From the IMG/VR virus record IMGVR_UViG_3300031576_000044, positions 1-61,019 of that record: DNA of 61,019 nucleotides. One strand, 5' to 3'. This document shows positions 27,154 through 49,469 of the stretch, piece after piece. A program made the position numbers and the translations under genes. Within the stretch, counting starts at the first letter, position 1. Each line of letters opens with the position of its first letter. This DNA comes from a virus (taxonomy: Duplodnaviria; Caudoviricetes). Below the pieces are notes generated by a model that was not told where the DNA came from, made no database searches, and saw only the letters and a list, made by a program, of their open reading frames with translations.

Positions 27154-27158
27154 CGGTC

Positions 27159-28754
27159 ATGGGCTTCCTCGACGTCGAGACAGCGGCTGGCGGCTCGAGC
27201 GACTTCTGCTCGATCCCGGCCACGGATGCCATCACCTTCCTCGCGCTCAACCTGCTCAACAACGGGTTCGCCAAGTCGGTCCTGCTCCCCGCGCTGACCA
27301 ACGTCTTCCCCAACCCCACCTCAGAGCTGCCGTGGGCGCCGGCGACGAACATCCGGGAGGGGCCGCGGCACCGCGCCTGGATCACCGAGGGCTGCTTCGC
27401 CTTCGGCGACAGCACTCTGTCGCCCGGTCGCGGCATCGAGATGACCACCGCCACCGGCGGAAACTACAACTTTCGGGTCACCGACAGCGGCGGGACCGCC
27501 AACGTGGATATCCGCAGCACCACCCCCACCACGTTTATCAAGTCGGGCGGTTACGGCGTCGCCGCGCAGCTCCAGAGCAAGCTCAACGCCGACACGACGC
27601 TCGCCGGCACCTACACCGTCACCTTCAGCGGCCGCAAGGACAGCTCGCCGACCTTCAAGTTCACGATCTCGTGCGCCGAGACCTTCTCGCTCGTTGCGCT
27701 TCGAGCGACCGACGTCAACAGTGGCTTTCCCTCGATCGGCTTCACGACGGACCGCTCGGCCGCCTCGAGCTACGTGGGCGACGAGATCGCCATCCACACC
27801 GAGGAGGCCCTGGTCATCGACATGGGGCCCACCGGCTGGCAGATCAACAACGCCACGCTCACCGACAAGTGGAGCTGGATCTACCTGGTGGACTGCAACT
27901 TCAGCGGGCCCGACGAGACCGACAGCTATGGCGGGAACAAGCTCAACCTGTACCTCGGGAGCACGCTGAGCGCCGTCGACAACAAGGCCGATGCGAACTT
28001 CAACCTGCACCGGACCATGTTCCGCCTGGGCCGCACCACCGTGCTCTCGCCCGCGACCCTCGCGAGCCTCGGCAACTGGGAGGGCACCGACACCGGCCTC
28101 TACGTGATGCGCTCAGGGGGCGCGGCCGCGGGCGCTTTCCCCAGCCGCCTCTACGCCGCCAACATCCAGCGCTGGCGGGCCGCGAACAACACGGGGGCCA
28201 ACGCCGAGGCCCCTAACCACCGCTACGTGCGGCTGAAGATCGTCGACCGGAAGAACCCCCAGGGGCAGGTGAAGGTCGGCAAGATCTACATCGGCCCCGG
28301 GTTCAGCTTCCTGCGCAATTGGATCTGGCGCTCGCTCTTCAGCCCCGTCGATCGCTCAGAGCGCTCCCAGGGCGTCGATGGCGGCGAGAACCGGCGCTTC
28401 CGGGAGCCAGGCCGTCTCGCCGAAGGCACCTGGGGCGATCGCAACCCGCTGACCGAGGTCGAGGCGATGCTGCTCGACTCTCTCGTCCTGCGCTCGCGCC
28501 GGGTCGAGCGCGACTCGAGCGGGAACCTGATCGCCACGCCGGGCCTCGACTCCGTCCTTTCGAACCCCAGGGTCATCACCGGGCGTTCGGCGCCCATGGC
28601 GGTCATGGACCCGAACTTCCGCCCCACGCTTGCCGACAGCTCGTTCAAGTACGCGGGCCAGATGCTCTACGGCACCGGCACGTTCAGCGACCTGGCGCCG
28701 CTGATGACCAACGGCTGGCAGGGTCGCTTCCGGCTCGACTCGGAGGTCCTGTAG
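27159..28754 (+). CDS. Distal tail (Dit-like) protein with insertions
   Basis: Directly after TMP; HRYVRLKIVD..NP...VGKIYIG. Confidence 0.6.
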   Translation: MGFLDVETAAGGSSDFCSIPATDAITFLALNLLNNGFAKSVLLPALTNVFPNPTSELPWAPATNIREGPRHRAWITEGCFAFGDSTLSPGRGIEMTTATGGNYNFRVTDSGGTANVDIRSTTPTTFIKSGGYGVAAQLQSKLNADTTLAGTYTVTFSGRKDSSPTFKFTISCAETFSLVALRATDVNSGFPSIGFTTDRSAASSYVGDEIAIHTEEALVIDMGPTGWQINNATLTDKWSWIYLVDCNFSGPDETDSYGGNKLNLYLGSTLSAVDNKADANFNLHRTMFRLGRTTVLSPATLASLGNWEGTDTGLYVMRSGGAAAGAFPSRLYAANIQRWRAANNTGANAEAPNHRYVRLKIVDRKNPQGQVKVGKIYIGPGFSFLRNWIWRSLFSPVDRSERSQGVDGGENRRFREPGRLAEGTWGDRNPLTEVEAMLLDSLVLRSRRVERDSSGNLIATPGLDSVLSNPRVITGRSAPMAVMDPNFRPTLADSSFKYAGQMLYGTGTFSDLAPLMTNGWQGRFRLDSEVL

Positions 28755-31472
28755 ATGGCGATCGGAACCCCGAGCATCGCCTCGCCGGTGGACGGCTCCG
28801 CCGCCCTGAACTGGCACGAGCCGATCTGCCTGCGCCTCAGCGCCTTCGTGGACACGGCGCCGCCCTCGACCTCGACCGAGCGGCAGAACTGCATCACCGA
28901 CCTCGACGGCAACTGGACCAACTCGGTGAAGTTCACGAACGGAACCGAGTTCATGGACGACCAGGCGTCCGCAACCGCGATCGGCAAGGCGAACCGCCAC
29001 GGGTTCTCGGGGCTCAACTTCACCGCGTCACCAACGCTGATCCTTTCCAACCTGCTGCTCACGCTCGACTACCTGGCGGAGTGGACGACCCCGCCCAACT
29101 ACGCCGGCAACGTCTACTGCAAGGGGCTGCTCAGCTACAAGCAGCGCACGGTTCAGGTCTGCAAGTTCCCGACGCCCACCACGCAGTGGACGAACACGCA
29201 CACGTCGACGGTGACCTACCGCAAGAAGGTCTCGATCCTGGCGACCGTACGCGACATCCTCGGGAAGCGCAACGTCACGATCGGCGACGTCGAGGGCATC
29301 GCCGCCGACCTGCACGTCGTCGTGGCGGTGGCCGGCGCGCGGCACAACTGCACCAACTTCCACGCCGGCCCGCTCTCGCTCGAGGCCGTCTACTACAGCT
29401 CGAACCCGCTCACCCAGGTCGCCGTCCAGTGGCAGTTCGCGACCGACACCGGGTTCAGCAGCATCGTGTACGACACAGGCGTCGTGGACACGGTCGAGGA
29501 CTACCTGTGGCTACCCGCGGATGCCCTGCCCCCGGGCTCTACGCTCTACGCGCGAGTGAAGCAGAAGGCCAGCGACAGCACCTTCTCCTCGTTCTCTGCG
29601 ACCCGCACGTTCACGACGCTCAGCACCGCTGCGGTCGGCGTGCTCCAGCAGGGCGCGAGCACGGTCCTCGTCGCCGACTTCGAGTTGCGAATGTTCATCG
29701 ACGGATGTCGGTGGACCGCCGGAGGCCTCAACTCCAACATGTGGTACCTCGACCTGCCTCGGTCTGGGCTCCCCTCACCCGCCTTCCGCGTCCTCGACAT
29801 CCTCGAGGAGGGCATCGCCAAGGGCTACACGGAGCGGGCGGCGGACACCGACTTCGTCGGGAATGGCGAGTTCGCCTACCCCGTCGGCGTCAACGAACGG
29901 CTCTGGGTCCGCACTTCGGATGCTCGTCCGCCAGGCGGCTGCAGCGACCACGGCATCCAGGTCCTCGTCGGCTTCGGGCTCGCGAGCAAGGGGCTCCTCG
30001 CCGGGCCCGGCGACACCTACGAATACCGCGGGCTCATCAAGAACCAGCCGGCGATCCAGGATTCGATCGACGACCTGGTGAGCGGCCATGGCGCGATCGC
30101 CACCAGCGGCCTCGAGCTGGACAACGCGGACGGGTTCTTCAACGCCTTCCTCGCCAACGTTTCGCCCGACTACGGCTGGATCGCGCACCAGTGCCGGGTG
30201 CAGCTCAGCGTAGTCGGATCCCACAGCCTCGGCGTGACCAAGTGGGCGGACCGGCACGTGCTCTGGGACGGGCTCTGCGAGTGGGAGCGCGCCGTGGTCG
30301 ACGGGACGACCGTACGGCTCGCCCTCGCGTCGCGCAAGGCAGAGACCGAGGCGCGCCTGGGGGTGACCCGGTTCACGAAGGATGAGTACCCGAACCTGCG
30401 GGACGCCGACGTCGGCCTGACCATCCCGGAGATGTATGGCGGCTTCGACCAGGTGCGCGTCCCGGCCTACGTCGTCGACTACACCGGCCGCATCCTCCGC
30501 CCGGTCGTCAAGGCGACCACGGTGGTGCACTTGTGGGCCGCCGGCGGGTCCGTCGACATGGGGACCAGCGGCACGAAGTGGAGCTTCGACTCCACCACGG
30601 GGCACATCAACATCCTCACGGCGGGCAACACCGACTTCGACAACAACAAAGACGGCGACTTCCGCTGCGAGATCTCGGTCGGCGACCGTCTGACCAACAG
30701 CCAGAGCGGCAACCTGGCGCAGTGCATCCTGCAGCGCGGCGGCGTGCCGGCCTCGCGCATCGTCTCGGCGAGCTTCGACAAGTACACGAGCGTCGCCCAG
30801 CTCTACCTCAGCGAGGAGACCGTGGTGGGGGACCTGCTCCGCCAGCTCGCGGCCGTCGATGGCTTCCACGTGGTGCAGCGCGCGGATCAGATGATCGAAG
30901 CTGTCCCCGACGTCCCGGACGGCCCTGAAGCGCGCACGGTGATCATCCTCTCCAAGGACGTGATCTCGCCGCCTCGGTTCTCGATCTCGACCGACCACAT
31001 GTGCGCGGTCGGCTCGCTGCGGTTCAAGGACCAAAAGCACAACGCCCACAAGAACGTCGAGGACGGCATGAACAGCGGGGCCTACCCCTCGGACCTGCTG
31101 CCGACCGCGACGCGTGCCGCCACCCTCTACCAGATCCGGCGCGAGATCGCCGAGGACTCGGCGGCTGACGTCAAAGTCGACATCGGCGAAGAGGTACCCG
31201 TGGTCGCCCGCTACTTCGCCGACGCCGATCGGCCGCGGCTGCACCTCGAGGTCGACACGAGCCTGCGCCACGCGCTGGCGATCGCCGGCAACACGGCGCT
31301 CGTGAGCCTGGACGAGGCGCTGCTCCCGCCGACGCCGGTCTGGTGGCCTGCCGGCATCCCGCGGCGCTTCGAGTGGGAGCTGTGCAAGGTGCTGAGCCGG
31401 ACCCGTGGCCGGGACGGGGTGACGCTATCGCTGCGTTGGCTGAAGACGCTTCCGAAGACCATCCAACCGTGA
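28755..31472 (+). CDS. Tail hub/tip protein
   Basis: Position; LDNADGFFN, IPEMYG; N-terminal Ig/Fn3-like QWQFATDTGFSSIVYDTG. Confidence 0.6.
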   Translation: MAIGTPSIASPVDGSAALNWHEPICLRLSAFVDTAPPSTSTERQNCITDLDGNWTNSVKFTNGTEFMDDQASATAIGKANRHGFSGLNFTASPTLILSNLLLTLDYLAEWTTPPNYAGNVYCKGLLSYKQRTVQVCKFPTPTTQWTNTHTSTVTYRKKVSILATVRDILGKRNVTIGDVEGIAADLHVVVAVAGARHNCTNFHAGPLSLEAVYYSSNPLTQVAVQWQFATDTGFSSIVYDTGVVDTVEDYLWLPADALPPGSTLYARVKQKASDSTFSSFSATRTFTTLSTAAVGVLQQGASTVLVADFELRMFIDGCRWTAGGLNSNMWYLDLPRSGLPSPAFRVLDILEEGIAKGYTERAADTDFVGNGEFAYPVGVNERLWVRTSDARPPGGCSDHGIQVLVGFGLASKGLLAGPGDTYEYRGLIKNQPAIQDSIDDLVSGHGAIATSGLELDNADGFFNAFLANVSPDYGWIAHQCRVQLSVVGSHSLGVTKWADRHVLWDGLCEWERAVVDGTTVRLALASRKAETEARLGVTRFTKDEYPNLRDADVGLTIPEMYGGFDQVRVPAYVVDYTGRILRPVVKATTVVHLWAAGGSVDMGTSGTKWSFDSTTGHINILTAGNTDFDNNKDGDFRCEISVGDRLTNSQSGNLAQCILQRGGVPASRIVSASFDKYTSVAQLYLSEETVVGDLLRQLAAVDGFHVVQRADQMIEAVPDVPDGPEARTVIILSKDVISPPRFSISTDHMCAVGSLRFKDQKHNAHKNVEDGMNSGAYPSDLLPTATRAATLYQIRREIAEDSAADVKVDIGEEVPVVARYFADADRPRLHLEVDTSLRHALAIAGNTALVSLDEALLPPTPVWWPAGIPRRFEWELCKVLSRTRGRDGVTLSLRWLKTLPKTIQP

Positions 31473-31483
31473 GGACCTCCGCC

Positions 31484-32800
31484 ATGATGACGATCGCCGC
31501 CTTGGTCTCGAGCGTCGCACTGAGCGCGACCCTCACCCACGGTCCGCAGGTCGGTGCGCTTGGCCCCACTTCGGTGCGGATCTGGGCCCGGGCCTGCACG
31601 CTCTCCGCAAACGGCACGTGTAGCGAGGCCCCCACGGCGGTGCTAGTGCGCTACCGCCAGGCTGGCACCTCCGGGGCATGGTCCATCGCCGGTCCCGTGA
31701 GCGCGATCTGGAGCAGCGACTGGACGGCCAGGATCGACGTGACTGGCCTGCTCCCGAGCACGAGCTACGACTACGAAGTGGACGTGGACGGCACGATCCA
31801 GGCGGCGGACATGTTCCGGGCGCTCCCGGCTCCTGGGGCCAGCTTCGCGCGCCTCGTTGTCGGTGGGGACCAGTTTACCGGGCTGGACGGTCCGAACGAC
31901 AACGCGCCGCCGTGGACCAGCTACGACCACGCGCTCGCGCTCGACCCGGATGCGTATTTCTTCATTGGCGACTGGAGCTACCCGAGTGGGACGAGTCTGA
32001 GCAAGTACCGCCTCGCCTACCGGACCACGGCGGCAGAGACGCGGATGAGGGCGTTCCTGCGGCGCGTGCCGACGGTCGCCATGTTGGACGACCATGAGAT
32101 CCGCAACGACTGGGACAGGGGCACGGCCCCGCCCTATCCGACCGCCCTGCGGGCCTGGAACGAGTACCCGGGCAGCCTGCGGCCGGCGCCCTACCGCGCC
32201 GGGGTGCTGTACTACACGCTGCGGGTCGGCCCGGCCGAGGTGTTCGTGGCCGACTGCCGTACTCACCGCTCCCTGAACAGCGCGCCGGACGACGCAAACA
32301 AGACGATGTTGGGTGCGCAGCAGGAGGCTGATGTCGCGCAGTGGCTCTCCCTGTCGCCAGCGCCGCTCCGGATCTTGGCGCTGCCCGTTCCAATGTTCGA
32401 CTACCAGTGCGTCCCAGGGGTCAACTGTGCCTGCATCCTATACGCCTCCTGCATCGACCGCTGGACCAACTTCAAGGCCGCTCGCCAGCGCCTACTCGAC
32501 GCCATCGACGCAGCGGGCAGCACCCCGGTGCTGATCGCATCCGCCGATCTGCACGCGCCGCATGTCGCGCTCTGGACGCTGGCGAGCGGTCGCACCGTCG
32601 AGGAGTGGAGCGGGGCGCCGATCGCCGCGTTCTCTGTCACCACCCCGCTCGTCGGGCCGCAGACCGTGTGGAGCGCATCTGGGGCGGGAGCCGCCTGGAC
32701 GCTGCTCGACGTATCGGTGCAGCTCGGGCAGGTAAGCGTCGCGGCCTCGATCCGCGACAAGCTCGGCGCCATTCGCCACCAGGGGGTGATCACGTGGTGA
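31484..32800 (+). CDS. phoD: PhoD-family alkaline phosphatase/phosphodiesterase with a hydrophobic N-terminus
   Basis: HGPQVG..SVRIWAR, GLLPSTSYDY, IGDWSY, LDDHEIRND, DCRTHRS, TMLGAQQ..W, DRW, SADLH. Confidence 0.88.
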   Translation: MMTIAALVSSVALSATLTHGPQVGALGPTSVRIWARACTLSANGTCSEAPTAVLVRYRQAGTSGAWSIAGPVSAIWSSDWTARIDVTGLLPSTSYDYEVDVDGTIQAADMFRALPAPGASFARLVVGGDQFTGLDGPNDNAPPWTSYDHALALDPDAYFFIGDWSYPSGTSLSKYRLAYRTTAAETRMRAFLRRVPTVAMLDDHEIRNDWDRGTAPPYPTALRAWNEYPGSLRPAPYRAGVLYYTLRVGPAEVFVADCRTHRSLNSAPDDANKTMLGAQQEADVAQWLSLSPAPLRILALPVPMFDYQCVPGVNCACILYASCIDRWTNFKAARQRLLDAIDAAGSTPVLIASADLHAPHVALWTLASGRTVEEWSGAPIAAFSVTTPLVGPQTVWSASGAGAAWTLLDVSVQLGQVSVAASIRDKLGAIRHQGVITW

Positions 32801-33612
32801 GGCGCCTCGCTCTGCTCCTCATGCTCCTGCTGCCGCGCGTCGCGGTGGGAGCGATCGCGGTCAGCGAGCCCACAGCCGACATCAACTCGACGGCAAACGC
32901 CACGTCCTACGCGATGGCGGCCTTCACCCCGGCGGCGAACTCGTTCCTGGTGGTGATGGTGTGCGCCTCCGCCACGCTGGCCGCGGATACCACGATGAGC
33001 GGCGGTAGCCTGACATGGACGCTCCGGCAGCAGCAGGGCTGGGACACCACATCGAGCGCCTACCTCTACACCGCTCCGGTAGGAGGATCGCCAGCGTCCA
33101 CGACTATTACCTTCTCGTGCGCCTCGGACGCTGCGACCGGCGCGAATATGATCGCGTACGAGTTCACCGGCAGAGACCCCACCACGCCGATCGTGCAGTC
33201 GGCGAAGAACGGCGGCACCTCCGCGAACCCGACGATCACCTTCGCGTCGGCGCTGAATACGAACAACGGGTACGCGTTCGCGGTCTGCGAGTTCCTCAAC
33301 CCGCCGGCTGGTACGCCTCCGACGAGCTGGACCGAAATCGCCGATGCCGGGCACGGCACCCCGACGGCGGGAGCTGCGGGGGCCTACCGCGCAGGAGGCG
33401 AGACGGGCACGACGTACACCTACACGGTCGCGAGCGCCGTCTGGGCCTCTCTCGGCATCGAGATCGCCGTTGAGCCGCCGAGCGTGGGCCAGCCGACGAT
33501 GCGCCGGTGGGAGCAGGTGCCCGGCATGCCGAGCGGCCGAGGCCGCGGCGGGATCACCAGGTACCGAGACGAGCTCCCATGCCTCGGGCAGGGATGCGAG
33601 GTAGAACCATGA
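32797..33612 (+). CDS. Exported beta-rich tail-region protein
   Basis: Signal peptide MRRLALLLMLLLPRVAVGA; Thr/Ala-rich beta sandwich. Confidence 0.7.
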   Translation: MRRLALLLMLLLPRVAVGAIAVSEPTADINSTANATSYAMAAFTPAANSFLVVMVCASATLAADTTMSGGSLTWTLRQQQGWDTTSSAYLYTAPVGGSPASTTITFSCASDAATGANMIAYEFTGRDPTTPIVQSAKNGGTSANPTITFASALNTNNGYAFAVCEFLNPPAGTPPTSWTEIADAGHGTPTAGAAGAYRAGGETGTTYTYTVASAVWASLGIEIAVEPPSVGQPTMRRWEQVPGMPSGRGRGGITRYRDELPCLGQGCEVEP

Positions 33613-35690
33613 GACGGCGAGCGCTCCTTCCTCCTGCGCGACCCGGGCACGCCACCGCGTCAACCGCGTCCGGGGTCAGCTCCCGGCGCCCGATTTCTAC
33701 CTCCGCGGTGGCGCGCTTCCTTTTCCTCGCGCTCTTCCTCTTTGCGCCGAGCGGCGTCGAGGCGGCGGCCAGCGACGCGAGGCCGGTTCCAATCAAGAAT
33801 GCGGCGTTCCGGATCACGCTGCCGATCCTGGATGCGGATGGCGATCTCGTGACGGGGGCCGCGACGCCTGACTCCGAGTGCTCCTGTGATGGCGGGACGT
33901 TCGCAGATTGCACCAACGAAATAACGGAGGTCGCCACCGCCTCCGGTGTGTACACCATCGACCTCACGGCTGGGGAGATGAACTGCGACACAACCGCCGT
34001 GATCGTGAAGACGGCGACGGCCGGCGCGAAGACGACGCCGATCGTGCTCTACCCGGCAACCTCAACCGGCGAGGAGATCCCGGTGGACACACGGGCTGTG
34101 GCCGGCACAGCGCAAACAGCGCGGGACCTCGGCGCGAGCGTGTTGTTGTCGGACGGGACGGGCGCTGGCCAGATCGACCTCAACGCTGGCGCGGTGGTCA
34201 GCGTCACGACGGCGACCACCTGCAGCACGGCGACGACGTGCACGAACGTGACGAACGTCTCCAGCGGCGGCATCACGGAGGCGTCGATCGCCGACGGGGC
34301 GATCAACCGCGCGACCTTCGCCGCGGACACAGGCCTCCAGACCGCCCGGAGCAACACCGCCCAGGCGGGCGCCGCGACCTCGATCACCCTGGACGCCGGG
34401 GCCAGCGCGACCACGGACTTCTACGCCCCGAGCATCGTCTACCTGACCGGCGGCACGGGGGCTGGCCAGGGATCCCGCATCGGGACGGCCTACAACGGCA
34501 CCAGCAAGGTGCTCACGGTGACGCCGGCGTGGGCGACGAACCCGGACGCGACCAGCACGTTCGCCGTCCTTCCGATCGGCGCGGCGACGCTGGAGGCGTG
34601 GCTGCGCGCCGTGCCGAATGCCCTCATTGCCGCCCGCGTGGACGCGAACGCGCAGGCGATGGGGGTCGACGTGGTTGGCCCCAGCCAGATCGCCGCGGGG
34701 GCCATCACCAGCAGCGAGGCGCCGAACCTGGACGCGGCGATGACCACCAGGATGGCGACGTACACCCAGCCGGCCGGCTTCCTGGCGGCGACCTTCCCGA
34801 GCGGCACCGTCGCCAGCACGACCAACATCACCGCCGGGACGATCACCACCTGCTCGGCGCTTACCACGAACAACGACAAGACCGGCTACGCGCTCACCGA
34901 GGCCGACAAGGACGCCATCCAGTGGCTCCGCACGGGCACGGCTGACTCTGGCACCAGCTCCACCTTCGTCGATGCTGCCTTGACGGAGGCGGACACCGAC
35001 TACTTCCACGACATCGCGGTGTGCTTCACGAGCGGCAACATCCTCGACCAGTGCGCGCTGGTGACTGGCTTCACCCCGGCGAGCGACACCGTGGCCTTCG
35101 CGCCGCCGGTCACCCAGGCGGTCGGCACCCACACGTACGGCTTCGCGGCAGCCTCGGCGGTGAACGTGGAGCGGTGGCGCCAGGCGCAGCCGCTGGCGCT
35201 CGCCTCCGGGCGCCCACAGGTTGAGGTGGACGCCTACGACGCGGCCGTGGACACGTTCACCAGGATCGGCGCCCCGGCTGGCGCCTCGATTGCCGCGGAC
35301 CTCGCCGCCATCCAGGGCGATACCAACCTCTACGACGCCGACGCCGAGCACTGCACCGCGGTCTGGGGATGCGACGCGACGTCGCAGCAGACCCAGGGCA
35401 GCTTCGGCGGGACGCTCGGGGACCAAGCGGCGGACACCGACGACGTGTGGGCGCTCTCGAACAGCTTCATGGGCGACACCTTCGCCGAGCCAGGCCAGGG
35501 GACACCGGCCGCGACCGCGACGCTGGCGACCAAGATCAACTGGTTGTACGTCGCGTGGAGGAACAAGAAGACCCAGACATCCACGCTCTTCAAGCTGTTC
35601 GCCGATGACACCACGACCGTGGTCACCAAGGCCACGGTCAGCGACGACGCGACCACCACGACCGTGAACGAGCAGGAGACCGGGCCATGA
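33609..35690 (+). CDS. Fibre-like repetitive protein with a signal peptide
   Basis: ...ARFLFLALFLFAPSGVEA then ASDARPVPIKN..PILDADGDLV; two repeated beta modules; Thr-rich. Confidence 0.7.
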   Translation: MRRRALLPPARPGHATASTASGVSSRRPISTSAVARFLFLALFLFAPSGVEAAASDARPVPIKNAAFRITLPILDADGDLVTGAATPDSECSCDGGTFADCTNEITEVATASGVYTIDLTAGEMNCDTTAVIVKTATAGAKTTPIVLYPATSTGEEIPVDTRAVAGTAQTARDLGASVLLSDGTGAGQIDLNAGAVVSVTTATTCSTATTCTNVTNVSSGGITEASIADGAINRATFAADTGLQTARSNTAQAGAATSITLDAGASATTDFYAPSIVYLTGGTGAGQGSRIGTAYNGTSKVLTVTPAWATNPDATSTFAVLPIGAATLEAWLRAVPNALIAARVDANAQAMGVDVVGPSQIAAGAITSSEAPNLDAAMTTRMATYTQPAGFLAATFPSGTVASTTNITAGTITTCSALTTNNDKTGYALTEADKDAIQWLRTGTADSGTSSTFVDAALTEADTDYFHDIAVCFTSGNILDQCALVTGFTPASDTVAFAPPVTQAVGTHTYGFAAASAVNVERWRQAQPLALASGRPQVEVDAYDAAVDTFTRIGAPAGASIAADLAAIQGDTNLYDADAEHCTAVWGCDATSQQTQGSFGGTLGDQAADTDDVWALSNSFMGDTFAEPGQGTPAATATLATKINWLYVAWRNKKTQTSTLFKLFADDTTTVVTKATVSDDATTTTVNEQETGP

Positions 35691-35959
35691 GGCGCCTTCT
35701 CGTGTTCCTCTTCGTCGCTGGCCTGGCCTCGCCCGCTGGCGCCGACCTCGATACGAAGCAGAAGCGCGGCTCGGTCGTGAGCATGGGTCAGCCCGGCCGG
35801 CCCTGGCTCGCCGAGCCGGACGGGACGCTCGCGAGCACCGACCGCATGTCGCTCATGACCTACGCCGCTGCCGTTGCGCCGGCGGCGCCTGGAGGCGTGA
35901 CGGTACCGCCGAAGGTCTACTACTACGAGCAGCTGCGAGCGCAGGAGGGGCAGCCGTGA
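35687..35959 (+). CDS. Small exported protein
   Basis: MRRLLVFLFVAGLASPAGA then DLDTKQKRGS. Confidence 0.7.
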   Translation: MRRLLVFLFVAGLASPAGADLDTKQKRGSVVSMGQPGRPWLAEPDGTLASTDRMSLMTYAAAVAPAAPGGVTVPPKVYYYEQLRAQEGQP

Positions 35960-36150
35960 AGATCGTCTGGCGAAACTGCCCGGATTGCGGCGTCCGGCTG
36001 ATGCACTACGGCTACTCGATGCACCGGCAGACGTGCCTGACCGCATCGCCTGGCTCTCGCGTCTTCTACGCGCGTAACCGCCGCTGGCCTATCACGGTCG
36101 CCGAGTTCCACGAGGCCAGGAGGCTCAACACGCGGAGGCGCAAGCGATGA
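35956..36150 (+). CDS. Small basic zinc-ribbon protein
   Basis: CPDC...H..C; 4-bp overlaps on both sides. Confidence 0.55.
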   Translation: MKIVWRNCPDCGVRLMHYGYSMHRQTCLTASPGSRVFYARNRRWPITVAEFHEARRLNTRRRKR

Positions 36151-38132
36151 GGAAGCTCCTTGCGGTCGGCCTGTCGCTGGCTCTGGCGGCGCCCGCTGGA
36201 CCAGCGTGCGTCCTGAAGCAGAGCACGGCGAAGACCATCCGCGTCGGTCCCTTCGTGGACAAGACGGACGGCGTGACCGAGGAGGTCGGCCTCGCCACCA
36301 CGGGCACCGAGCTGTCGAAGGACGGCGGCGCCTATGCGGCCGGTCCGACGCTCGGGACGCACGACGCCGAGGGCTGGTACCCGCTGGCCCTGACCAGCGG
36401 CAACACGGACACGCTCGGGGAGCTGCTGATCAAGGTCCACGACGTCGCCACGCACCTGCCTCTGTGGCGGAGCTGCACCGTGCTGACGGCCAACGTCTTC
36501 GACTCGCTCTACGGCACCGGCGATGTGCTCGACGTGAGCACCATCCAGTTCAACGGGAGCGCCGTGATCCAGTCCGGCGGCCGGCCGGAGGTGAACACGA
36601 CGCACTGGGCTGGCGGCGCGACGGCCACCGACGACGTGGCTCTCGCGACGGCGCCGACCAACTTCGCCCTGTTCGAGGTCAACGCCTCCGGGCAGGTAGA
36701 CGTCTACCAGATCGAGAACGTGGACGCCACGAACCAGATCAACTCCGAGGTGGACGTCGCCCTCGACACGGCCATCCCGACCACGCCGACGACAGACTCC
36801 ATCAACGAGCGAGTCAAGACCCTCGACGACAACTACACGGCCGCGCGCGCGCCCAAGCTCGACAACGCCGACGTGGCGACGTCGACCAGGGCCACGCCGG
36901 CCCAGGTCGGCACCGAGCTCGACAACCGGCGGCTGGACGAGCTGGCCTCCGCCGACTCGGATCTAGACGGCGCGCAGCCCCCTGCGGTGGGCAGCTACTT
37001 CTTCGAGCTCATGTCGAAGTCGACCGGGAGCTTCACCTTCGACCAGACCACGGAGTCGACCGAAGCGCTGCGGGACCAGCTCTCCACCTACGCCGGCGGC
37101 GACACCGCGGGCACCACCACCCTGCTCTCGAGGATCCCCGGCGTCGTCCAGCCGCAGACGGGCGACTCCTACGCGCGCCTGGGGGTGCCCACGGGCGCGT
37201 CGACTGCGGCTGACATCGCGGCGGTGAAGACCGACACCGGCAACCTGGTGACCCGCATCCCCGATGGCGACCTCGACATCATGTCCAACCGCTGGCTCTC
37301 CATGATCCAGCTCGACGGCGCCGACTACGAGTACAAGCCGAGCGCCCTCGAGGAGGCACCGGGCGCGAGCGACCCGACGGTGCTGCAGAGCACGGTCATC
37401 GCGACCCTGGGGAGCCAGACCAGCCTCACCCTGACGGCCGGGTCGGGGGACGACAACGCCTACAACGAGGCGATCGCCATCTTCGTCGACGCCTCAACCC
37501 CGACCCAGAAGGCGGCCGTGGCGGTGCTCGACTACACGGGCTCGACCAAGACGGTCACCTTGGCCGAGGCGCCGGCGTTCACGATCGCGGCCGGGGACAC
37601 CATCCACCTAGTCGCGACCGGCCAGCCGTGGGACGTCGCCATGGCGGACCACCTGCTCGCGAACTCAACCGGGTCGAAGCTGAACTCGGCCGCGGCCGCA
37701 GGCGACCCTCTTTCCGCCAGCTGTCCAGGCGCGTACACCGGCAACCAGGTCGGCGCGCTCATCTGCTCCAAGCTGCCGCAGATCGGCTCGCTCGAGGTGA
37801 GCTGGACCGGTCCGTACACCGAGACCGGGGAGGTCGTCGTCACCAAGGGCGACGACACTACTCTCGACTGGGTGAACTCGACCGGGAACTGGGACACGCT
37901 GACCGGCGCCAGCATCACGCTCTACGTCTACCGCGGCCAAGTCCTGGTCCTGCAGAAGACCGGGAGCATCATCTTGCCGACGGGCGCACCAAAGCAGGTG
38001 CGGGTGACCCTGACCAACACCGAGACTGCGAGCTTCACCCCCGACAAGCACGACTACGTGGTAAAGGCCACGTGGACGGGTCCCGTCATCAAGACCCTCG
38101 CCCGAGGCGACTGGCAAGTGATCTGGCCATGA
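36147..38132 (+). CDS. Fibre-like protein with a signal peptide and C-terminal BppU-like domain
   Basis: MRKLLAVGLSLALAAPAGPA; LKQSTA..VGPFVD..LSKDGG; C-terminal KGDD...LTGASITL...LTNTETA...YVVK...TLARG. Confidence 0.7.
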   Translation: MRKLLAVGLSLALAAPAGPACVLKQSTAKTIRVGPFVDKTDGVTEEVGLATTGTELSKDGGAYAAGPTLGTHDAEGWYPLALTSGNTDTLGELLIKVHDVATHLPLWRSCTVLTANVFDSLYGTGDVLDVSTIQFNGSAVIQSGGRPEVNTTHWAGGATATDDVALATAPTNFALFEVNASGQVDVYQIENVDATNQINSEVDVALDTAIPTTPTTDSINERVKTLDDNYTAARAPKLDNADVATSTRATPAQVGTELDNRRLDELASADSDLDGAQPPAVGSYFFELMSKSTGSFTFDQTTESTEALRDQLSTYAGGDTAGTTTLLSRIPGVVQPQTGDSYARLGVPTGASTAADIAAVKTDTGNLVTRIPDGDLDIMSNRWLSMIQLDGADYEYKPSALEEAPGASDPTVLQSTVIATLGSQTSLTLTAGSGDDNAYNEAIAIFVDASTPTQKAAVAVLDYTGSTKTVTLAEAPAFTIAAGDTIHLVATGQPWDVAMADHLLANSTGSKLNSAAAAGDPLSASCPGAYTGNQVGALICSKLPQIGSLEVSWTGPYTETGEVVVTKGDDTTLDWVNSTGNWDTLTGASITLYVYRGQVLVLQKTGSIILPTGAPKQVRVTLTNTETASFTPDKHDYVVKATWTGPVIKTLARGDWQVIWP

Positions 38133-38323
38133 CCGAGACGACCCGTCCCCTCGAGGTCGCCCGCGCGGACGCGGTGGTCGAGGCGCGCTCGCTCGAGCGC
38201 GAGAGCCGGGGTCATCACGTCTCCGAGGTCGACCGCCTGATGTGGCGGATCGAGGAGGTGTGGCTGGGCATGCGGGGCCGGCTCCGGGGGCTCGTCGACG
38301 ACGCGAAGGCGAGGCGCGGATGA
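38129..38323 (+). CDS. Hypothetical protein
   Basis: ATGA-coupled ORF. Confidence 0.5.
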   Translation: MTETTRPLEVARADAVVEARSLERESRGHHVSEVDRLMWRIEEVWLGMRGRLRGLVDDAKARRG

Positions 38324-38673
38324 CGCCGGCCGAGGTCGCGCTCGGTGCGGCCGGCATCCTGCTCAACACCTTCTTGGCGCTCGTGGCCCTGGTCTACTCG
38401 CGCCGGGACAAGGGCAGCCAGGACCGCGAGGACCTGCGCAAGGCCATCGACGCGGTGGCAAAGGATCTCCATGACCACCAGCTCGCCTACGAGAAGCGGG
38501 TCGGCCGGTTCGTTGAGCGCTCCGAACTCGATCGTTGGGACGACTGTTTCGACGTGCTCACGGCCTCGATCGCCAGGCTCCGCGAGATCCTTGCGGCGCA
38601 ACGCGGACGTGCCGACGAGGTCGCGCACCCTCGGCGTGCACCCAAGGGGGGAGGGGACCTGGATGAACCCTGA
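38320..38673 (+). CDS. Single-TM coiled-coil protein (holin/antiholin-like)
   Basis: TM VALGAAGILLNTFLALVALVY plus coiled coil; upstream of the endolysin. Confidence 0.55.
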   Translation: MTPAEVALGAAGILLNTFLALVALVYSRRDKGSQDREDLRKAIDAVAKDLHDHQLAYEKRVGRFVERSELDRWDDCFDVLTASIARLREILAAQRGRADEVAHPRRAPKGGGDLDEP

Positions 38674-38935
38674 GGTCCCCCGCCTGCTCATCGTCGCCAG
38701 CGGTGTCCTCGGCGCGGCCGCCATGGCGACGCTCGCCCTGCTCTGCCGCAACGGTACGGACCCGGCGCGCGCGGCGTTCCGCCGGCTCTTCTGGGTCTGC
38801 TCGCTGTCGTTCCTGCTCAGCGTCGCGCTCCGGCTGTTCGCGTCGACCTGGTACTGGGGCGGCGTGGTCAACCTGTGGCTGCCGGCGCTCGCGGCCGCAG
38901 CGACGGTCCATGCGCTGCGCGGAGGTCGGTCGTGA
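38663..38935 (+). CDS. Small multi-TM protein (holin candidate)
   Basis: Three hydrophobic segments in 90 aa, directly before the endolysin. Confidence 0.55.
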   Translation: MNPEVPRLLIVASGVLGAAAMATLALLCRNGTDPARAAFRRLFWVCSLSFLLSVALRLFASTWYWGGVVNLWLPALAAAATVHALRGGRS

Positions 38936-39552
38936 CGGTCGACGAACTGCTTGCCCGCGCGCGCGCCCAGGTCGGGCACAAGGCCCGCAGCCTCCAGGAG
39001 CCGCAGGCTGGAGAGCGTGCGATCTACCAGCTCGGCGCCGGCGCTCTCGACCCCAGCGCCCCACACCCCTGGGGCGAGGGCGAGGACGGCGCCTGCGACT
39101 GCTCGGCGTTCTCCTGCTGGTGCTTGGGCGTCTCGAAGCTGCAGCGCGGCTTCCGCTGGCTCGTACAGCTCAACGGCGGGTGGCTCAACACCGACGGGAT
39201 CTGGACGGACGCGCAGCACGAGAGCGGGTTCTTCGAACGGCTCGAGCGGCCGCTCGTCGGCTGCGCGCTCGTCTACCCGAGCGCCAAGGTCGCGAAGCTC
39301 CCCGGCACCCCACCGATCGGACACGTCGGGATCGTGACCGCGCTCGACGCCCAGGGCCGCGCTGCAAAGGTCATCCACTGCAGCTCGGGCAACTATCGCA
39401 AGACCGGGGACGCCATTCAGGAGACCGACGCCACCGTGTTCAGCCGGGTTGGAGCCACGCTCGCCGCCTGGTGCGCCACCGTCGAGCGTCCCGAGCAGGC
39501 CCGACCCAAGAAGGAGGCTCCATGCAGACCTATCTCCGCGCCCTTGTCCTGA
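38932..39552 (+). CDS. NlpC/P60-CHAP endolysin
   Basis: YQLGAG, CDCSAF.CWCLG, WLNTDGI, GHVGIV, VIHCSSG. Confidence 0.82.
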   Translation: MTVDELLARARAQVGHKARSLQEPQAGERAIYQLGAGALDPSAPHPWGEGEDGACDCSAFSCWCLGVSKLQRGFRWLVQLNGGWLNTDGIWTDAQHESGFFERLERPLVGCALVYPSAKVAKLPGTPPIGHVGIVTALDAQGRAAKVIHCSSGNYRKTGDAIQETDATVFSRVGATLAAWCATVERPEQARPKKEAPCRPISAPLS

Positions 39553-39833
39553 TCCTGGCCGCCGCGCTCGCCGGCTGCAGCGACGAGTCGCCGACCGGAC
39601 CCTTCCCAACCCCGACACCCGCCCCGGGCTGCCCGTTCACTCTCGAGGCCGTGCCCATAGCCGGCGCGGCCGGCTTCTACCACGTCCAGCCCAACCCGGC
39701 CGGGGACTACGTGCTCTTCGTCAACGGCTCGAGCACGTCGCTCGAGTTCGGCGTCATTTTCACCGCGGCGAGCGGAGACGTGATCTCCGGCTGCCGCCCC
39801 TGCGGCTGCACGACCCCCGTCACGCTGCGCTGA
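39522..39833 (+). CDS. Pro-rich lipoprotein
   Basis: Lipobox LAGC; SDESPTGPFPTPTP. Confidence 0.7.
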   Translation: MQTYLRALVLILAAALAGCSDESPTGPFPTPTPAPGCPFTLEAVPIAGAAGFYHVQPNPAGDYVLFVNGSSTSLEFGVIFTAASGDVISGCRPCGCTTPVTLR

Positions 39834-39845
39834 GAGAGGAGGACC

Positions 39846-40133
39846 ATGGTCCGCGCCAAGTTCAGGCTCAACAAGATCGAGACCTCGGAGCACACCAGGT
39901 CGCACCCGACCATCGACGGCAAGTACACGAGCGAGGTCCTCGAACTGCGCACCCTCATCTTCTCGCCCGTCTACAGCAGCGACCCCGAGAGCGAGAACCG
40001 CCACTTCTGGGATGCGACCCCGAGCGGCGAGATCCGGCTCGGCTGCGTGAACCGGGAGGCCTGGGAGAAGTTCCAGCTCGGTCACGAGTACTACCTCGAC
40101 TTCACGCCGGCGCCGGCGATGGCCACCCCATGA
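39846..40133 (+). CDS. Conserved phage hypothetical protein
   Basis: VRAKF...ENRHFWDATPSGEI...GHEYYLDFTPA; strong SD. Confidence 0.75.
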   Translation: MVRAKFRLNKIETSEHTRSHPTIDGKYTSEVLELRTLIFSPVYSSDPESENRHFWDATPSGEIRLGCVNREAWEKFQLGHEYYLDFTPAPAMATP

Positions 40134-40147
40134 AAGGAGAATCCTCA

Positions 40148-40582
40148 ATGAAGTCCCGCCTGCTCCTCACGCTGCTCCTGCCCCTGCTCGTCATCCTCGC
40201 CGCCTGCGACTGCTCCAAGTGGTACGGCAAGTACCGCGCCGGCTACAGCTTCGTCTCGGGCGCGGTCTACGGCGTGCTCGATCCACTTGCCGGCGTCGAC
40301 CCAGGCATCGGAGCCCGCTACAACCCGCTCAAGACGGCGCTCGAGGCCGCGAACAGCCTCATCGACCGGCTCTGCGCGGCCGACCCCGGCGCGAAGGAGC
40401 AGCAGGACCTGGCGGCGGCGATCGCCAACGGGGCCCAGCTCGTGTCCGAGATCGCCAAGGTCTACGGCGACGTCGTGCGGCCGCGCGACCTCGAGGAGGC
40501 CAGGGCCTGGAAGGAGACGGTCGCCGAGATGGAGGGTCTGCAGGCGGAGATCCAGCAGGCGGCCGAGCGAGGCACCAGGTAG
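40148..40582 (+). CDS. Helical lipoprotein (spanin-like candidate)
   Basis: MKSRLLLTLLLPLLVILAAC lipobox; SD AAAGGAG. Confidence 0.7.
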   Translation: MKSRLLLTLLLPLLVILAACDCSKWYGKYRAGYSFVSGAVYGVLDPLAGVDPGIGARYNPLKTALEAANSLIDRLCAADPGAKEQQDLAAAIANGAQLVSEIAKVYGDVVRPRDLEEARAWKETVAEMEGLQAEIQQAAERGTR

Positions 40583-40586
40583 CTCC

Positions 40587-41120
40587 ATGCTGTCGAAGCG
40601 CCCGCGCTCCTGGACCGCCGGCGAGCTCGCCGACCAGGTCGAGGTCCGCGTCGCCGGCGAACGCCGGAAGGTGCCCCGCCGTCTGCTCGACCTGATGGCC
40701 GGGCCACGGCCGCCAGTGGACTGCGAGTCCAACGGCTGCGGGCCGAAGCTCTCGGCGGTGCCGTGCCTGGGGCGCCTCGTCTCCTGGCTCGTGCCCGACG
40801 TGCTTCACGGCTGGCCGATCTGGATCGGATGCCACTGGCACGACTACCACTACGGGCCACACCGCCCGCTCGGAGGAACCTGGGCCTCGCGGCGGCAGGC
40901 CGACTTCCTGCTCGCCCGCAACATCCTGACCGTGATCGCTGAGGCCGGCGTCTGCAGCTGGCCGCGCGCCGCTACGGTGGCCGGGCTCTACTGGCTGGGC
41001 GTCCGCCTCGGCGGGTGGTGCGCGTTCAGCTACGGACCCGGAGAGGCCCCGCGCTCCGCCCTCGAGCGCGTCCGGGAGCGGACCGGGCTTTTCCGTCGCG
41101 CAGTGGGGAGCGTGACCTGA
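40587..41120 (+). CDS. Prokaryotic phospholipase A2-like protein
   Basis: NGCGP, CHWHDYHY (His-Asp), RRQADFLLARN, YWLGVRLGG. Confidence 0.72.
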   Translation: MLSKRPRSWTAGELADQVEVRVAGERRKVPRRLLDLMAGPRPPVDCESNGCGPKLSAVPCLGRLVSWLVPDVLHGWPIWIGCHWHDYHYGPHRPLGGTWASRRQADFLLARNILTVIAEAGVCSWPRAATVAGLYWLGVRLGGWCAFSYGPGEAPRSALERVRERTGLFRRAVGSVT

Positions 41121-42025
41121 TGGGCTGGTTCCGCAACTTCCTGGCGTGGCTGCGGGACGATGACGTCCCCGCGCCGGCACTCGCCTCGTCGCCGTCGCCG
41201 GTGACCGCTGAAGGTCGCCGCCTCACCATCGGCGTCGGCGTCAACGAGTACCTCGGCTCGCCTGAGAACGCGCTCCGCGGCTGCGTCAACGACTCGGTCA
41301 ACGTCCGCCACGAGCTCGAGCAGCGGGGATGGGAGGCACCGGCCGAGCTGCTCTTCGACCACGAGGCGACGAAGCGCCGCACCCTCGAGGTCATTGGCAA
41401 TACCTGCGCGAGCCTGCGCACCGGCGACACGCTGCTCGTCCAGTGGTCGAGCCACGGGACACGTATCCATGATCCGGCGGAGGCCGACGGGCTCCTCGAG
41501 GCGATTTGCCCGACCGACGCCATGGCCGACTGGCCACGGAACCTGGTGACGGTCCTGGACCTCGCCCGGATCTTGCGCGAGCAGGTGGCTCCCGGGGCGC
41601 TGGTGCTCCTCCTGGTCGACGCCTGCCACAGCGGGGTGCGGGGCGCGGATGCGGGCAACTACGCCCGGGCGCTGAACCCGCTCTACCGGCGGGCGCGCGT
41701 CCTCCTGGGGCCCGTGGCGGCCGGCGGGACACGGGTCCGGGGACTCAGCGGCGCTGTCACCGGGCAGGTGGCGACCCCCTGGTCGAGGACGGTGCTCCTG
41801 TCCGGCTGCCGCTCCGACCAGGTCTCGCTCGACACGTGCATCGCCGGCGAGTACCAGGGCGCGATGACCTGGGCGTTCCTGCGCGCGCTGCGCTGGACCC
41901 GGTCCGAGCGGACGCTCCGGGAGCTCCACGTCCACATGCGGCAGATCCTGACGGCGCAGGGGTACGCCCAGGAGCCGCAGCTCCTCGGGTCGCCGCCGCA
42001 GCTCGAGCGCCGGGTGTTCGGATGA
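41120..42025 (+). CDS. Caspase-family (peptidase C14, metacaspase-like) protease
   Basis: GVNEY..LRGCVND, catalytic SSHG and DACHSG, p10-like SGCRSDQVS..GAMT..QEPQL. Confidence 0.92.
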   Translation: MGWFRNFLAWLRDDDVPAPALASSPSPVTAEGRRLTIGVGVNEYLGSPENALRGCVNDSVNVRHELEQRGWEAPAELLFDHEATKRRTLEVIGNTCASLRTGDTLLVQWSSHGTRIHDPAEADGLLEAICPTDAMADWPRNLVTVLDLARILREQVAPGALVLLLVDACHSGVRGADAGNYARALNPLYRRARVLLGPVAAGGTRVRGLSGAVTGQVATPWSRTVLLSGCRSDQVSLDTCIAGEYQGAMTWAFLRALRWTRSERTLRELHVHMRQILTAQGYAQEPQLLGSPPQLERRVFG

Positions 42026-43127: not shown

Positions 43128-43607
43128 CTAATGTTGGGGCGGCTTGCAGTTCGTGCAAGGACGACGAGCACGCCTCGCCTCATCGAGACTCGTCGACCGT
43201 GCTCCAGGCTTGACGTATTTGCAGTCGTCGAAGTGGTAGGCCTCCCCTTGCAGGTTGACGTAGTAGCGCACCCCTGCCGGGAAGGGCCAGGATTTGGTGA
43301 TGCCCTCCATGGTGATCGCGCCGGCCTGGTCATCGGAGATTCCATACTTCGCGCGCACGGCCGCGAGCCGCTTGTCGGCCAGCCTTTCCTTCAAGTTCGC
43401 CTGCGCTGCGAGGACCTTTCCCATCTCCGCTTTGTTCATCGGGCCACGGCTGAGGTCAGGCGTCGGGATCCGTCCCTCGGCCTCGGCGCCGGCCCTGGCG
43501 CTCGCGGCGTACAGCGCCTGGTAGATCTCGATGCGCTTCGCCTCCGTCACCTCGGCCGCGGTAACCTGGCTGGAAAGGTAGAGCAAGAGAGCCGCAGCCC
43601 TCAACAT
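43128..43607 (-). CDS. Exported protein with the same C-terminal metal-binding domain
   Basis: MLRAAALLLYLSSQVTA; YYVNLQGEAYHFDDC...RPCTNCKPP. Confidence 0.7.
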   Translation of the reverse strand: MLRAAALLLYLSSQVTAAEVTEAKRIEIYQALYAASARAGAEAEGRIPTPDLSRGPMNKAEMGKVLAAQANLKERLADKRLAAVRAKYGISDDQAGAITMEGITKSWPFPAGVRYYVNLQGEAYHFDDCKYVKPGARSTSLDEARRARRPCTNCKPPQH

Positions 43608-49168: not shown

Positions 49169-49469
49169 CGCCCGCGTCCACCCGTCCGCGATCCTCGCCG
49201 GCGGCCTCAACGACCGAGCTGAGCGCAACGCCCACCTGGATCTCGCACGTCTGCGCAAGGCCACCGCGATCGCCGCTGCCATCCGCGAACAGGAGCAGCG
49301 CCAGGGCGTCCGCATGACCCGTGAGGCGGTCCGGCTCATCTCGCCCGAGGGGCGGCGGCAACTCGAGCGCGCGGCCCGGGTCAACGTCTCGAGCGAGGAG
49401 ACCTGGGCCCTCGTCGCCGAGCAGTTCCCTTGGTCGGAAGGGCAGTCGTGGTCGGAGGCGCAGGCGTGA
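49161..49469 (+). CDS. Hypothetical protein
   Basis: SD GGAGG; overlapping neighbours. Confidence 0.6.
   Translation: MGSARVHPSAILAGGLNDRAERNAHLDLARLRKATAIAAAIREQEQRQGVRMTREAVRLISPEGRRQLERAARVNVSSEETWALVAEQFPWSEGQSWSEAQA

Follow-up and report, generated by a model that had tools for sequence, protein, structure and literature searches.

Sec-type leaders as probable N-terminal additions to five tail-region proteins of a temperate tailed phage

In the textbook view, the morphogenesis of tailed phages is wholly cytoplasmic. Signals for the general secretory (Sec) pathway are known from other phage proteins, namely the pIII and pVIII coat proteins of filamentous phages, endolysins of the signal-peptide and signal-arrest-release (SAR) types, spanins, and T4 RI; among these, pIII and pVIII are virion parts that mature outside the cytoplasm. 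T5 Llp and lambda Lom and Cor, which are encoded near receptor-binding genes, are also exported and carry signal peptides. In this study, we analyzed the tail region of a siphovirus-type phage represented by the IMG/VR virus record IMGVR_UViG_3300031576_000044, the whole of which (61,019 bases) is referred to as the window. Between its tail hub gene and its lysis genes is a chain of seven genes, here called g1 to g7, and the products of five of them (g1, g2, g3, g4, and g6) begin with hydrophobic leaders resembling Sec signal peptides.

The filamentous coat proteins, Sec and SAR endolysins, spanins, and T4 RI either serve in lysis or belong to non-tailed phages extruded through the membrane, and none of them is a tailed-phage fibre. 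Each of Llp, Lom, and Cor is a lone small lipoprotein or outer-membrane protein whose expression is separate from that of the late operon, whereas the window set is of large fibre type and coupled to the hub: the leader-bearing products among g1 to g6 comprise 90–693 amino acids (aa) and have no lipobox, and the genes are start/stop-coupled to the hub gene. Like leaders were found in the Cellulophaga phage phi18:3 (NC_021794.1), where gp085, gp086, and gp087 open with MKNKITIIMILMSISFGYSQ, MKKTIYILSILLLTISGVSAQ, and MKHTFSIVLFFILSIGLNAQ, are consecutive, and lie just upstream of lysis genes and the endolysin. The record annotates these three, from tandem mass spectrometry (MS/MS) proteomics, as virion structural, structural, and tail proteins. 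Unlike the window phage, phi18:3 is a podovirus of a Bacteroidota host with Cys-poor gp085–087 (0, 1, and 3 Cys), and no sequence relation of gp085–087 to g1–g6 was found.

The g6 gene is placed behind the Dit and hub genes, as are the baseplate proteins of lactococcal and staphylococcal siphophages, on which we know of no signal peptide. The model of the g6 N-domain aligns to Ig-like N-domains of BppU/ORF48 of TP901-1 (3uh8, 4v96) and of the 80alpha baseplate (6v8i) at Z 6.1–7.0 over ~90 residues, values that the search tool rates as common. As in modular tail fibres and receptor-binding proteins (RBPs), the N-domains of g3 and g6 are common to thousands of proteins of very different lengths, and the g3 C-terminus reappears on a different N-domain in a Microcystis phage. 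Unlike the usual modular fibres, those of the window phage and a few relatives have a putative secretion signal ahead of the adaptor and extra cysteines. In the portions of the literature reached by a full-text search (including PMC5723332 and PMC8951688), no paper on tail fibres with Sec signals in tailed phages was found.

Leaders in the gene chain behind the tail hub

The interval from the hub stop to the lysis genes is filled by the seven translationally coupled genes, all on the plus strand. Neighbouring genes overlap by 4 bases (ATGA or GTGA) throughout, from g1 to g7 and also between g7 and the gene at 38320. An earlier note, made from the letters and translations of this region, had reported five coupled genes with hydrophobic signal-like N-termini after the hub and had called the leader of g1 the weakest. 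Both statements were borne out from the translations, the chain comprising seven genes.

In the following, a slash marks the predicted cleavage site. The gene g1 (31484–32800) encodes a PhoD-like phosphoesterase of 438 aa, or 443 aa from GTG 31469, with the weak leader (MRTSA)MMTIAALVSSVALSA/TLT; this alternative start forms a GTGA overlap with the hub stop (hub end 31472). For g2 (32797–33612), a beta-sandwich protein of 271 aa with a disordered 40-aa tail, the leader reads MRRLALLLMLLLPRVAVGA/IAVSEP. The Thr-rich fibre g3 (33609–35690, 693 aa) has the leader ..ARFLFLALFLFAPSGVEA/AASDARPVP and may start at ATG 33609, which lies in an ATGA overlap with GAGG upstream, or at GTG 33708. The small partner protein g4 (35687–35959, 90 aa) was flagged signal-like with MRRLLVFLFVAGLASPAGA/DLDTKQKRGS, and the second fibre, g6 (36147–38132, 661 aa), combines the leader MRKLLAVGLSLALAAPAGPA/CVLKQSTA with an Ig-like N-domain (residues 21–125) and a variable C-terminal part. 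The gene order after tape measure, Dit, and hub and ahead of the lysis genes, together with a conserved N-terminal adaptor and a variable distal part, is that of siphovirus tail fibres and RBPs.

Leaders were called with a rule of our own for n-, h-, and c-regions, supplemented by reading by eye. The rule flags g3, g4, g6, and, solely from GTG 31469, g1, while it flags none of the 15 genes that precede the cluster, counted from the putative terminase through the hub. Outside the cluster, the plus-strand open reading frames (ORFs) at 49430 and 56612 and the minus-strand ORFs 43128–43604 and 43604–44302 are flagged. A positive n-region is formed by RR or RK at residues 2–3 in g2, g4, and g6 and by R3 in g3 read from GTG 33708, and in g1 it exists solely from GTG 31469. 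The h-regions are uncharged and span 9–12 residues, with a best 8-residue Kyte-Doolittle mean of 2.4–3.4 (g2 being judged by eye). In the c-regions, Pro/Gly are followed by small residues at −3/−1, giving the sites VGA/I (g2), VEA/A (g3), AGA/D (g4), GPA/C (g6), and LSA/T (g1), with an unusual c-region Arg in g2. A motif of the twin-arginine translocation (Tat) type, S/T-R-R-x-F-L-K, is approached by SRRPIS in g3, 10 residues ahead of the very hydrophobic h-region, solely if translation starts at 33609. Proteins of the PhoD family are usually Tat-exported; g1 has no RR.

Start codons were considered for each gene. In g3, g4, and g6 there is no ATG, GTG, or TTG from the hydrophobic segment to the first residue conserved in homologues, and the hydrophobic segments must therefore be translated. 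The signal-coding stretches also have a coding-type composition, with G+C contents at the first, second, and third codon positions of 0.72 (GC1), 0.50 (GC2), and 0.86 (GC3) in 94 pooled codons. True starts downstream of the segments, which the earlier note had named as a result that would speak against its reading, are thus absent from these three genes; they are possible in g2 (GTG 32845) and g1 (TTG 31502). From ATG 33609, a 33-residue n-region would precede the leader anatomy seen from GTG 33708. The stretch 33609–33707 (33 codons) has a GC2 of 0.82 above a GC3 of 0.73, unlike coding sequence here, which favours GTG 33708. A start there would leave a 95-base gap behind g2.

Leader-bearing and leader-less homologues

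A comparison of homologues with and without leaders had been proposed in the earlier note. It showed the leader to be a precise N-terminal addition, with the sites of g2, g3, g4, and g6 lying 0–2 residues from Met1 of leader-less homologues. The family counts given here cover the matches listed, 150 for the g6 N-domain, 120 for g3, and 96 for g2, self included for g6 and g2.

Residues 1–156 of g6 matched 7825 representatives at E<=1e-3 (phmmer, 1.84 billion representatives), and lengths in the listed set range from 134 to 1364 aa. In 140 of the 150 matches, no more than 6 residues precede the domain (M-x-x-LKQSTA..); a hydrophobic leader is present in six (self, P0004, P0006, P0029, P0032, and P0076) and a non-hydrophobic extension in four. 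Across the six leader-bearing relatives the character of the h-region is kept and its sequence is not, and the nearest relative of g6 among the matches listed, P0005 (76% identity), has no leader. When P0004 was used as query, three relatives were found, all leader-less. For residues 1–180 of g3, 118 of 120 homologues begin with MASTDARPVP.., corresponding to g3 residue 52, exactly after the VEA site; the two exceptions are P0229, where the domain is internal, and P0153, which has a hydrophobic leader. The g3 N-domain gave 574 matches among 8000 scored candidates. P0153 and P0004 each lie on a 5121-nt Joint Genome Institute (JGI) contig and probably stem from one relative phage. The g2 family is dimorphic: in 35 of 96 members a leader precedes AIGVSEP.., and 53 begin directly with MAIGxSEP.., the remaining eight being short hydrophobic stubs (2), rows without the N-terminus (4), and proteins with an internal domain (2).

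Among cultured phages (INPHARED, tblastn), no match was obtained for g2, g3, or the g3 N-domain, and g6 matched 3 records, of which the Microcystis phage Mvi-Yong1342-1 alone covers the N-domain. In this phage, the g6 N-domain homologue starts with MTIYLKQSTA and the g4 homologue with MAIDTAAKRASV, both at the predicted cleavage sites. From residue 21 onward, g4 resembles a leader-less 70-aa protein from its residue 3 onward (pairwise E 5e-5), which is encoded behind the fibre gene. Side by side in Mvi-Yong1342-1 (L002, PP496355.1, 5986–8002) stand the g4-like small gene and the gene with the g6 N-domain, and a metallophosphoesterase gene separates the fibre genes from the lysin. This position is thus again taken by a phosphoesterase, though one of a family other than the PhoD of g1, and all these Mvi-Yong1342-1 genes are leader-less. 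The five proteins of the window appear, as a well-supported reading of these comparisons, to carry Sec-type leaders that are evolutionary additions.

The closely spaced cysteines pointed out in the earlier note are all present, the totals being 7 in g1, 5 in g2, 11 in g3, 0 in g4, and 4 in g6. Its suggestion that a gain of cysteines might track with the leaders holds for the g6 and g3 families and is not universal, since one leader run in an unrelated phage (L011, see below) is Cys-poor. In g6, Cys21, the first mature residue, and Cys110 occur together in 5 of 6 leader-bearing rows and in none of the 144 others; among the latter, Cys110 alone is found in 8 and a Cys at position 21 alone in 1, and position 110 is Phe in 104 of all 150 rows. 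Fisher's test for the Cys pair against the leader gave 1e-8, a value inflated by kinship that overstates the evidence because few evolutionary events are involved. A quick maximum-likelihood tree, computed on the mature domain after masking of column 110, places the five Cys-pair proteins in a clade of 7 rows (Shimodaira-Hasegawa-like approximate likelihood ratio test, SH-aLRT, 92), the other two of which, P0005 and P0034, lack both the leader and the cysteines. P0076, which has a leader and no Cys pair, falls in the opposite half of the tree. As far as this tree shows, leader and Cys pair in the g6 family changed together, whether by gain or by loss, every time. Among g3-type proteins, Cys101 is widespread (114 of 120 rows), whereas Cys91, Cys93, and Cys126 are confined to g3 and P0153 (2 of 120 rows each), which also have the pairs VCFTSG..DQC and EHCxAVWGC in common. 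Over whole genes, the Cys content is 1.25% in the five leader genes of the window versus 0.58% in its other structural genes (p 0.003), and in a second phage, L013, it is 1.88% in the leader genes versus 0.24% in the others. A DNA pattern built on the Cys junction found in metagenomes the 1.5-kb contig of P0006 and one chance match, nothing else, and had no match in IMG/VR.

Scanning IMG/VR with a g2-family profile yielded 15 loci, L011 and L013 being the two with a leader-bearing g2 homologue. These two phages are unrelated; both look podovirus-like, with portal or DNA-ejection proteins upstream, and differ in base composition (40% G+C in L011, 56% in L013). Each has five consecutive leader genes at the end of the structural module (L011 4537–12002, L013 7932–11700), and the members of these runs include a 1071-aa protein with a tail-fibre PHROG match. 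Four of the five L011 leaders end in ..SQ or ..AQ. None of the 13 leader-less g2 loci has a leader run longer than 2 in a crude scan. In a g2-family tree of 69 rows, from which 27 of 96 had been dropped due to an ambiguous automatic leader label, 15 changes of leader status are required, and branches with good support force at least 5 of these. As read from the sequences compared, tail-tip gene clusters follow an all-or-none pattern of leader status, which has been switched many times in evolution. The leader thus appears to behave as a switchable module applied to the whole tail-tip gene set, with the mature domains unchanged, and such switching on an unchanged mature domain fits a protein that ends outside the cell by either route.

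Domains of the chain proteins and flanking genes

In the AlphaFold2 (AF2) model of g6, residues 21–125 form a confident beta-sandwich (predicted local distance difference test, pLDDT, >90) and residues 1–20 are unstructured (62–69); Cys21 lies in the first strand (21–24) and Cys110 in the last (103–113). The model of g2 shows beta-sandwiches (pLDDT 87), with residues 21–228 folded and residues 1–20, which have low confidence, and 230–271 outside the fold. A fold search with g2 gave no clear match (best Z 7.8), the top matches, all at Z below 8, being CBM-, lectin-, and RBP-head-like. Its disordered 40-residue tail (residues 232–271, window 33490–33612, pLDDT ~50) carries CLGQGC and is absent from the family profile.

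The g6 N-domain had no clear match in the PDB, where Ig-like sandwiches were returned (Foldseek best E 1.5e-3; VIA Z 8.0–5.8); among many Ig-like rows, VIA listed the 80alpha baseplate (6v8i_BN, Z 7.0) and the TP901-1 BppU N-domain (3uh8, Z 6.2). In BFVD, 37 matches at E<=1e-3 were obtained, some of them named tail fiber, minor tail, baseplate component, or BppU N-terminal, the last at E of about 6e-4 to 9e-4. A BppU-like C-terminus, as seen by the earlier note, was not recovered: the testable likeness, a weak one at the fold level, sits in the N-terminal domain instead, and Pfam BppU_N did not match. The N-domain profiles of g3 and g6 are distantly related (hhalign 70%, E 4e-5), with the cysteines in different columns. 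No Pfam model exists for either family. Both families (window 33762–34160 and 36207–36560) are large in metagenomes (574 and 7825) and near-absent from cultured phages (0 and 1 INPHARED records). The match of g6 to Phage_depo_C is weak (0.0033, under the cut-off).

PhoD (PF09423) matches g1 above the gathering score (3.6e-28, 99.1 bits versus a cut-off of 27), PhoD_N from residue 19 lies below it (1.4e-5, 25.9 bits, cut-off 30), and a PHROG phosphodiesterase family also matches (phrog_24476, 6e-16). No close homologue of g1 was found, the 5 matches besides self being distant PhoD proteins with a top identity of 30%. The leader-less members of the chain are small. The 64-aa g5 (35956–36150) has a basic tail and a CxxC plus a third Cys, giving it a Zn-ribbon-like appearance, and matches nothing in Pfam or PHROG. 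The final coupled gene ahead of the lysis genes, g7 (38129–38323, 64 aa), encodes a charged, helical-looking protein without a family match.

The record is linear, with ~69% G+C and an estimated completeness of ~70% (CheckV). Its siphovirus-type structural module on the plus strand comprises a portal (phrog_145), a major head protein (phrog_212), a tail assembly chaperone, a 1518-aa tape measure (PF10145, phrog_991), and proteins of 531 and 905 aa in the Dit and hub positions. The latter, a tail hub or Tal-like protein (28755–31472, plus strand), was assigned from its ORF and its place after the tape measure and the Dit-like gene; it had no Pfam or PHROG match of its own, was not flagged by the n/h/c rule, and is the last cytoplasmic-type tail gene ahead of the leader cluster. 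No close phage relatives were found with hub and Dit queries in IMG/VR or with the hub query in GTDB genomes. The phage is temperate, since an integrase (46395–47501), RecT, RusA, and ParB are encoded to the right of the structural module.

Behind the chain on the plus strand follow the lysis genes: a coiled-coil protein with one transmembrane (TM) segment (38320–38673), a holin-like protein with three (38663–38935), both read from sequence, and a leader-less CHAP endolysin (38932–39552; PF05257, 2.9e-6). Two lipoproteins come next, one Pro-rich with the lipobox ..LAAALAG/C (39522–39833) and one with ..LVILAA/C (40148–40582), and between them (span 39522–40582) sits a 95-aa gene. The lipoproteins may be spanin-like and, together with the coiled-coil one-TM protein, suggest a diderm host; the leader-less endolysin, the multi-TM holin-like protein, and the lipobox lipoproteins are consistent with such a host and with hole-forming lysis. 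A caspase-domain protein (PF00656, 3.3e-19) is encoded directly after these genes, at 41120–42025. Near the integrase, the two minus-strand ORFs at 43128–44302 have a signal-like leader, MLRAAALLLYLSSQVTA, and a lipoprotein-like leader, MRRIFAGLAALSLLGC, and are probably lysogenic-conversion genes. Among 33 further ORFs scanned in the window, no Dsb, signal-peptidase, or Sec genes were found.

Probable export, proposed late docking, and other explanations

The earlier note had read these proteins as exported and disulfide-bonded. Two comparative tests support this, the leaders as additions and the Cys gain in the g6 and g3 families, and export itself is what we infer from them. The five proteins are probably exported, cleaved at sites that recreate the family N-terminus, and disulfide-bonded. 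Each of these distal-tail, host-recognition proteins would be led into Sec export by a cleavable signal peptide of the signal peptidase I (SPase-I) type, and removal of the signal would regenerate the N-terminus with which leader-less homologues start. Folding would follow in the periplasm of a diderm host, under oxidising conditions in which the cysteine pairs of the leader-bearing lineages would form disulfides. No signal is present on capsid, tail tube, Dit, or hub, which would be built in the cytoplasm. As the exported set would be separate from the cytoplasm-built particle, the two could meet only after the holin has breached the inner membrane at lysis; the virion parts would then dock on the finished tail, the two fibres g3 and g6 via their conserved Ig-like N-domains. 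That distal-tail parts are re-routed in this way through Sec, folded in the periplasm, and docked on the virion at lysis seems to us evenly poised between right and wrong.

Late docking is suggested because the docking-type N-domain is kept, a leader-less copy was not found in window 26001–42000, the genes are coupled to the hub, the endolysin is leader-less, and the phi18:3 annotation provides a precedent. In that stretch, hmmsearch detected a single gene each of the g3 and g6 types. Regarding the alternative of the earlier note, a surface structure, indirect evidence favours the virion fate, namely the docking-type N-domains, the absence of a leader-less paralogue from 26001–42000, and the phi18:3 annotation.

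Several observations weigh against export and late docking. Docking after lysis would have to cope with dilution and, before the holin acts, with a topological barrier. The n/h/c rule is crude and does not flag g2, which it misses because Arg14 stands between the h-region and the VGA/I site; the internal GTG 32845 could also yield a signal-less form of this protein. Read from ATG 31484, g1 lacks a positive charge and gains an Arg solely via GTG 31469, and the start of g3 is ambiguous (ATG 33609 versus GTG 33708). The leader of P0153, of g3 type, lies inside a longer frame continuous with a g2-type C-terminus and is not a simple N-terminal signal: the first ~35 residues align to the C-terminal tail of the g2 frame (GQPTMRRWEQVP..) and the remainder to the g3 frame (compare window 33480–33770), and ahead of the mature g3 domain there are two hydrophobic segments, VGLALLLALLV and, after RRVAR, LAVSAGLALLLPATAFA. 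Either two proteins are fused around an internal signal, or the contig end has truncated an ORF. Concerning the cysteines, the five Cys-pair proteins of the g6 family amount to 2–3 events, with a parsimony minimum of 3 changes, 2 of them forced by well-supported branches. The relation is reversed in L011, where leader genes have 0.41% Cys versus 0.99% in the other genes, and the leader-less hub of the window holds 1.44%. Also, the fold matches have Z values of 6–8, a level called common by the tool itself.

The proteins might be exported and never enter the particle, and function instead in the cell envelope during infection or lysogeny; they could, for instance, mask or destroy receptors, loosen polymers, or be shed as adhesins or enzymes. 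Superinfection exclusion, protection of progeny from debris, and a PhoD-type phosphodiesterase that eases release would be cases of this kind. The temperate nature of the phage would suit such a role, as would the existence of exported proteins beside tail genes in T5 and lambda, the enzymatic character of g1, and the lectin/CBM-like sandwich of g2 at weak Z. We nevertheless regard this main rival as unlikely. The 4-base overlaps couple all seven genes to that of the hub, a sign of late expression in stoichiometric amounts; at 60–76% identity, g3 and g6 still share their N-domains with thousands of fibre-type proteins that have no leader, and hmmsearch of 26001–42000 gave no leader-less fibre copy with which the virion might be armed instead. 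Frequent switching of the leader on the same mature domains is hard to square with one protein acting in the cytoplasm and another in the periplasm, and the leader proteins of phi18:3 are annotated as virion proteins.

If the leaders stayed uncleaved, they could serve as membrane or lipid anchors of a tethered surface or envelope structure or of an assembly platform, with g6 as a lipoprotein via Cys21. A Cys directly after the leader in 5 of 6 leader-bearing g6 relatives points this way, as do the loosely lipobox-like P0004 (..SPASAG/C) and the two segments around RRVAR in P0153, which resemble a helical hairpin. At 9–12 residues, however, the h-regions are rather short to cross a membrane, and Pro/Gly and small −3/−1 residues come after them. 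The lipobox L-[AS]-[GA]-C was not found in g6 (AGPA/C) or its relatives (ASAG/C, VRAA/C, AWGQ/C, AGSQ/C), the misfit lying in GPA/C of g6, WGQ/C of P0029, and GSQ/C of P0032, whereas the two lipoproteins of the phage fit it. Since Cys21 of the leader-bearing rows is always accompanied by Cys110, a disulfide suits it better than lipidation, and we consider such anchors improbable.

Still less probable in our view is that no export takes place and the hydrophobic N-termini are structural in the virion, buried in the baseplate or, at infection, inserting into the host membrane, while the cysteines oxidise after release. Cytoplasmic assembly of tailed-phage parts and the likewise Cys-rich, leader-less hub would agree with this. 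The n/h/c anatomy with RR/RK at residues 2–3 and the lack of conservation of the segment sequences among relatives do not, nor does the absence of the segments from 140 of 150 (g6) and 118 of 120 (g3) homologues, and AF2 puts the g6 and g2 segments outside the fold. An artefact of start-codon choice can practically be dismissed: g2 from GTG 32845 would read MGAIAVSEP.., resembling leader-less homologues, and g1 has TTG 31502, but g3, g4, and g6 offer no start codon between segment and conserved domain, the leader codons have a GC3 of 0.86, and like leaders recur in independent database proteins.

Export followed by docking at lysis may extend beyond this phage. Many tailed phages might run a second, extracytoplasmic assembly line, in which the whole distal host-recognition set, from fibres to lectin-like or enzymatic accessories and small partners, would be Sec-exported, folded in the host periplasm (with disulfides here and glycans elsewhere), and added after holin opening, the leader being a switchable module gained and lost repeatedly for the whole set; we hold this to be somewhat short of an even chance. 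If receptor-binding parts mature in the periplasm, virions would be infectious solely from lysis on, and the Dsb and Sec functions of the host would be factors of phage production. Fibres could then bear disulfides or periplasmic modifications that recombinant expression in the cytoplasm misses, which would bear on the production of RBPs and depolymerases and on host-range engineering in laboratory phages. Annotation pipelines that count signal peptides against a structural role would mislabel such genes. With the large g3 and g6 N-domain families, which are without a Pfam model, the question is testable across many genomes.

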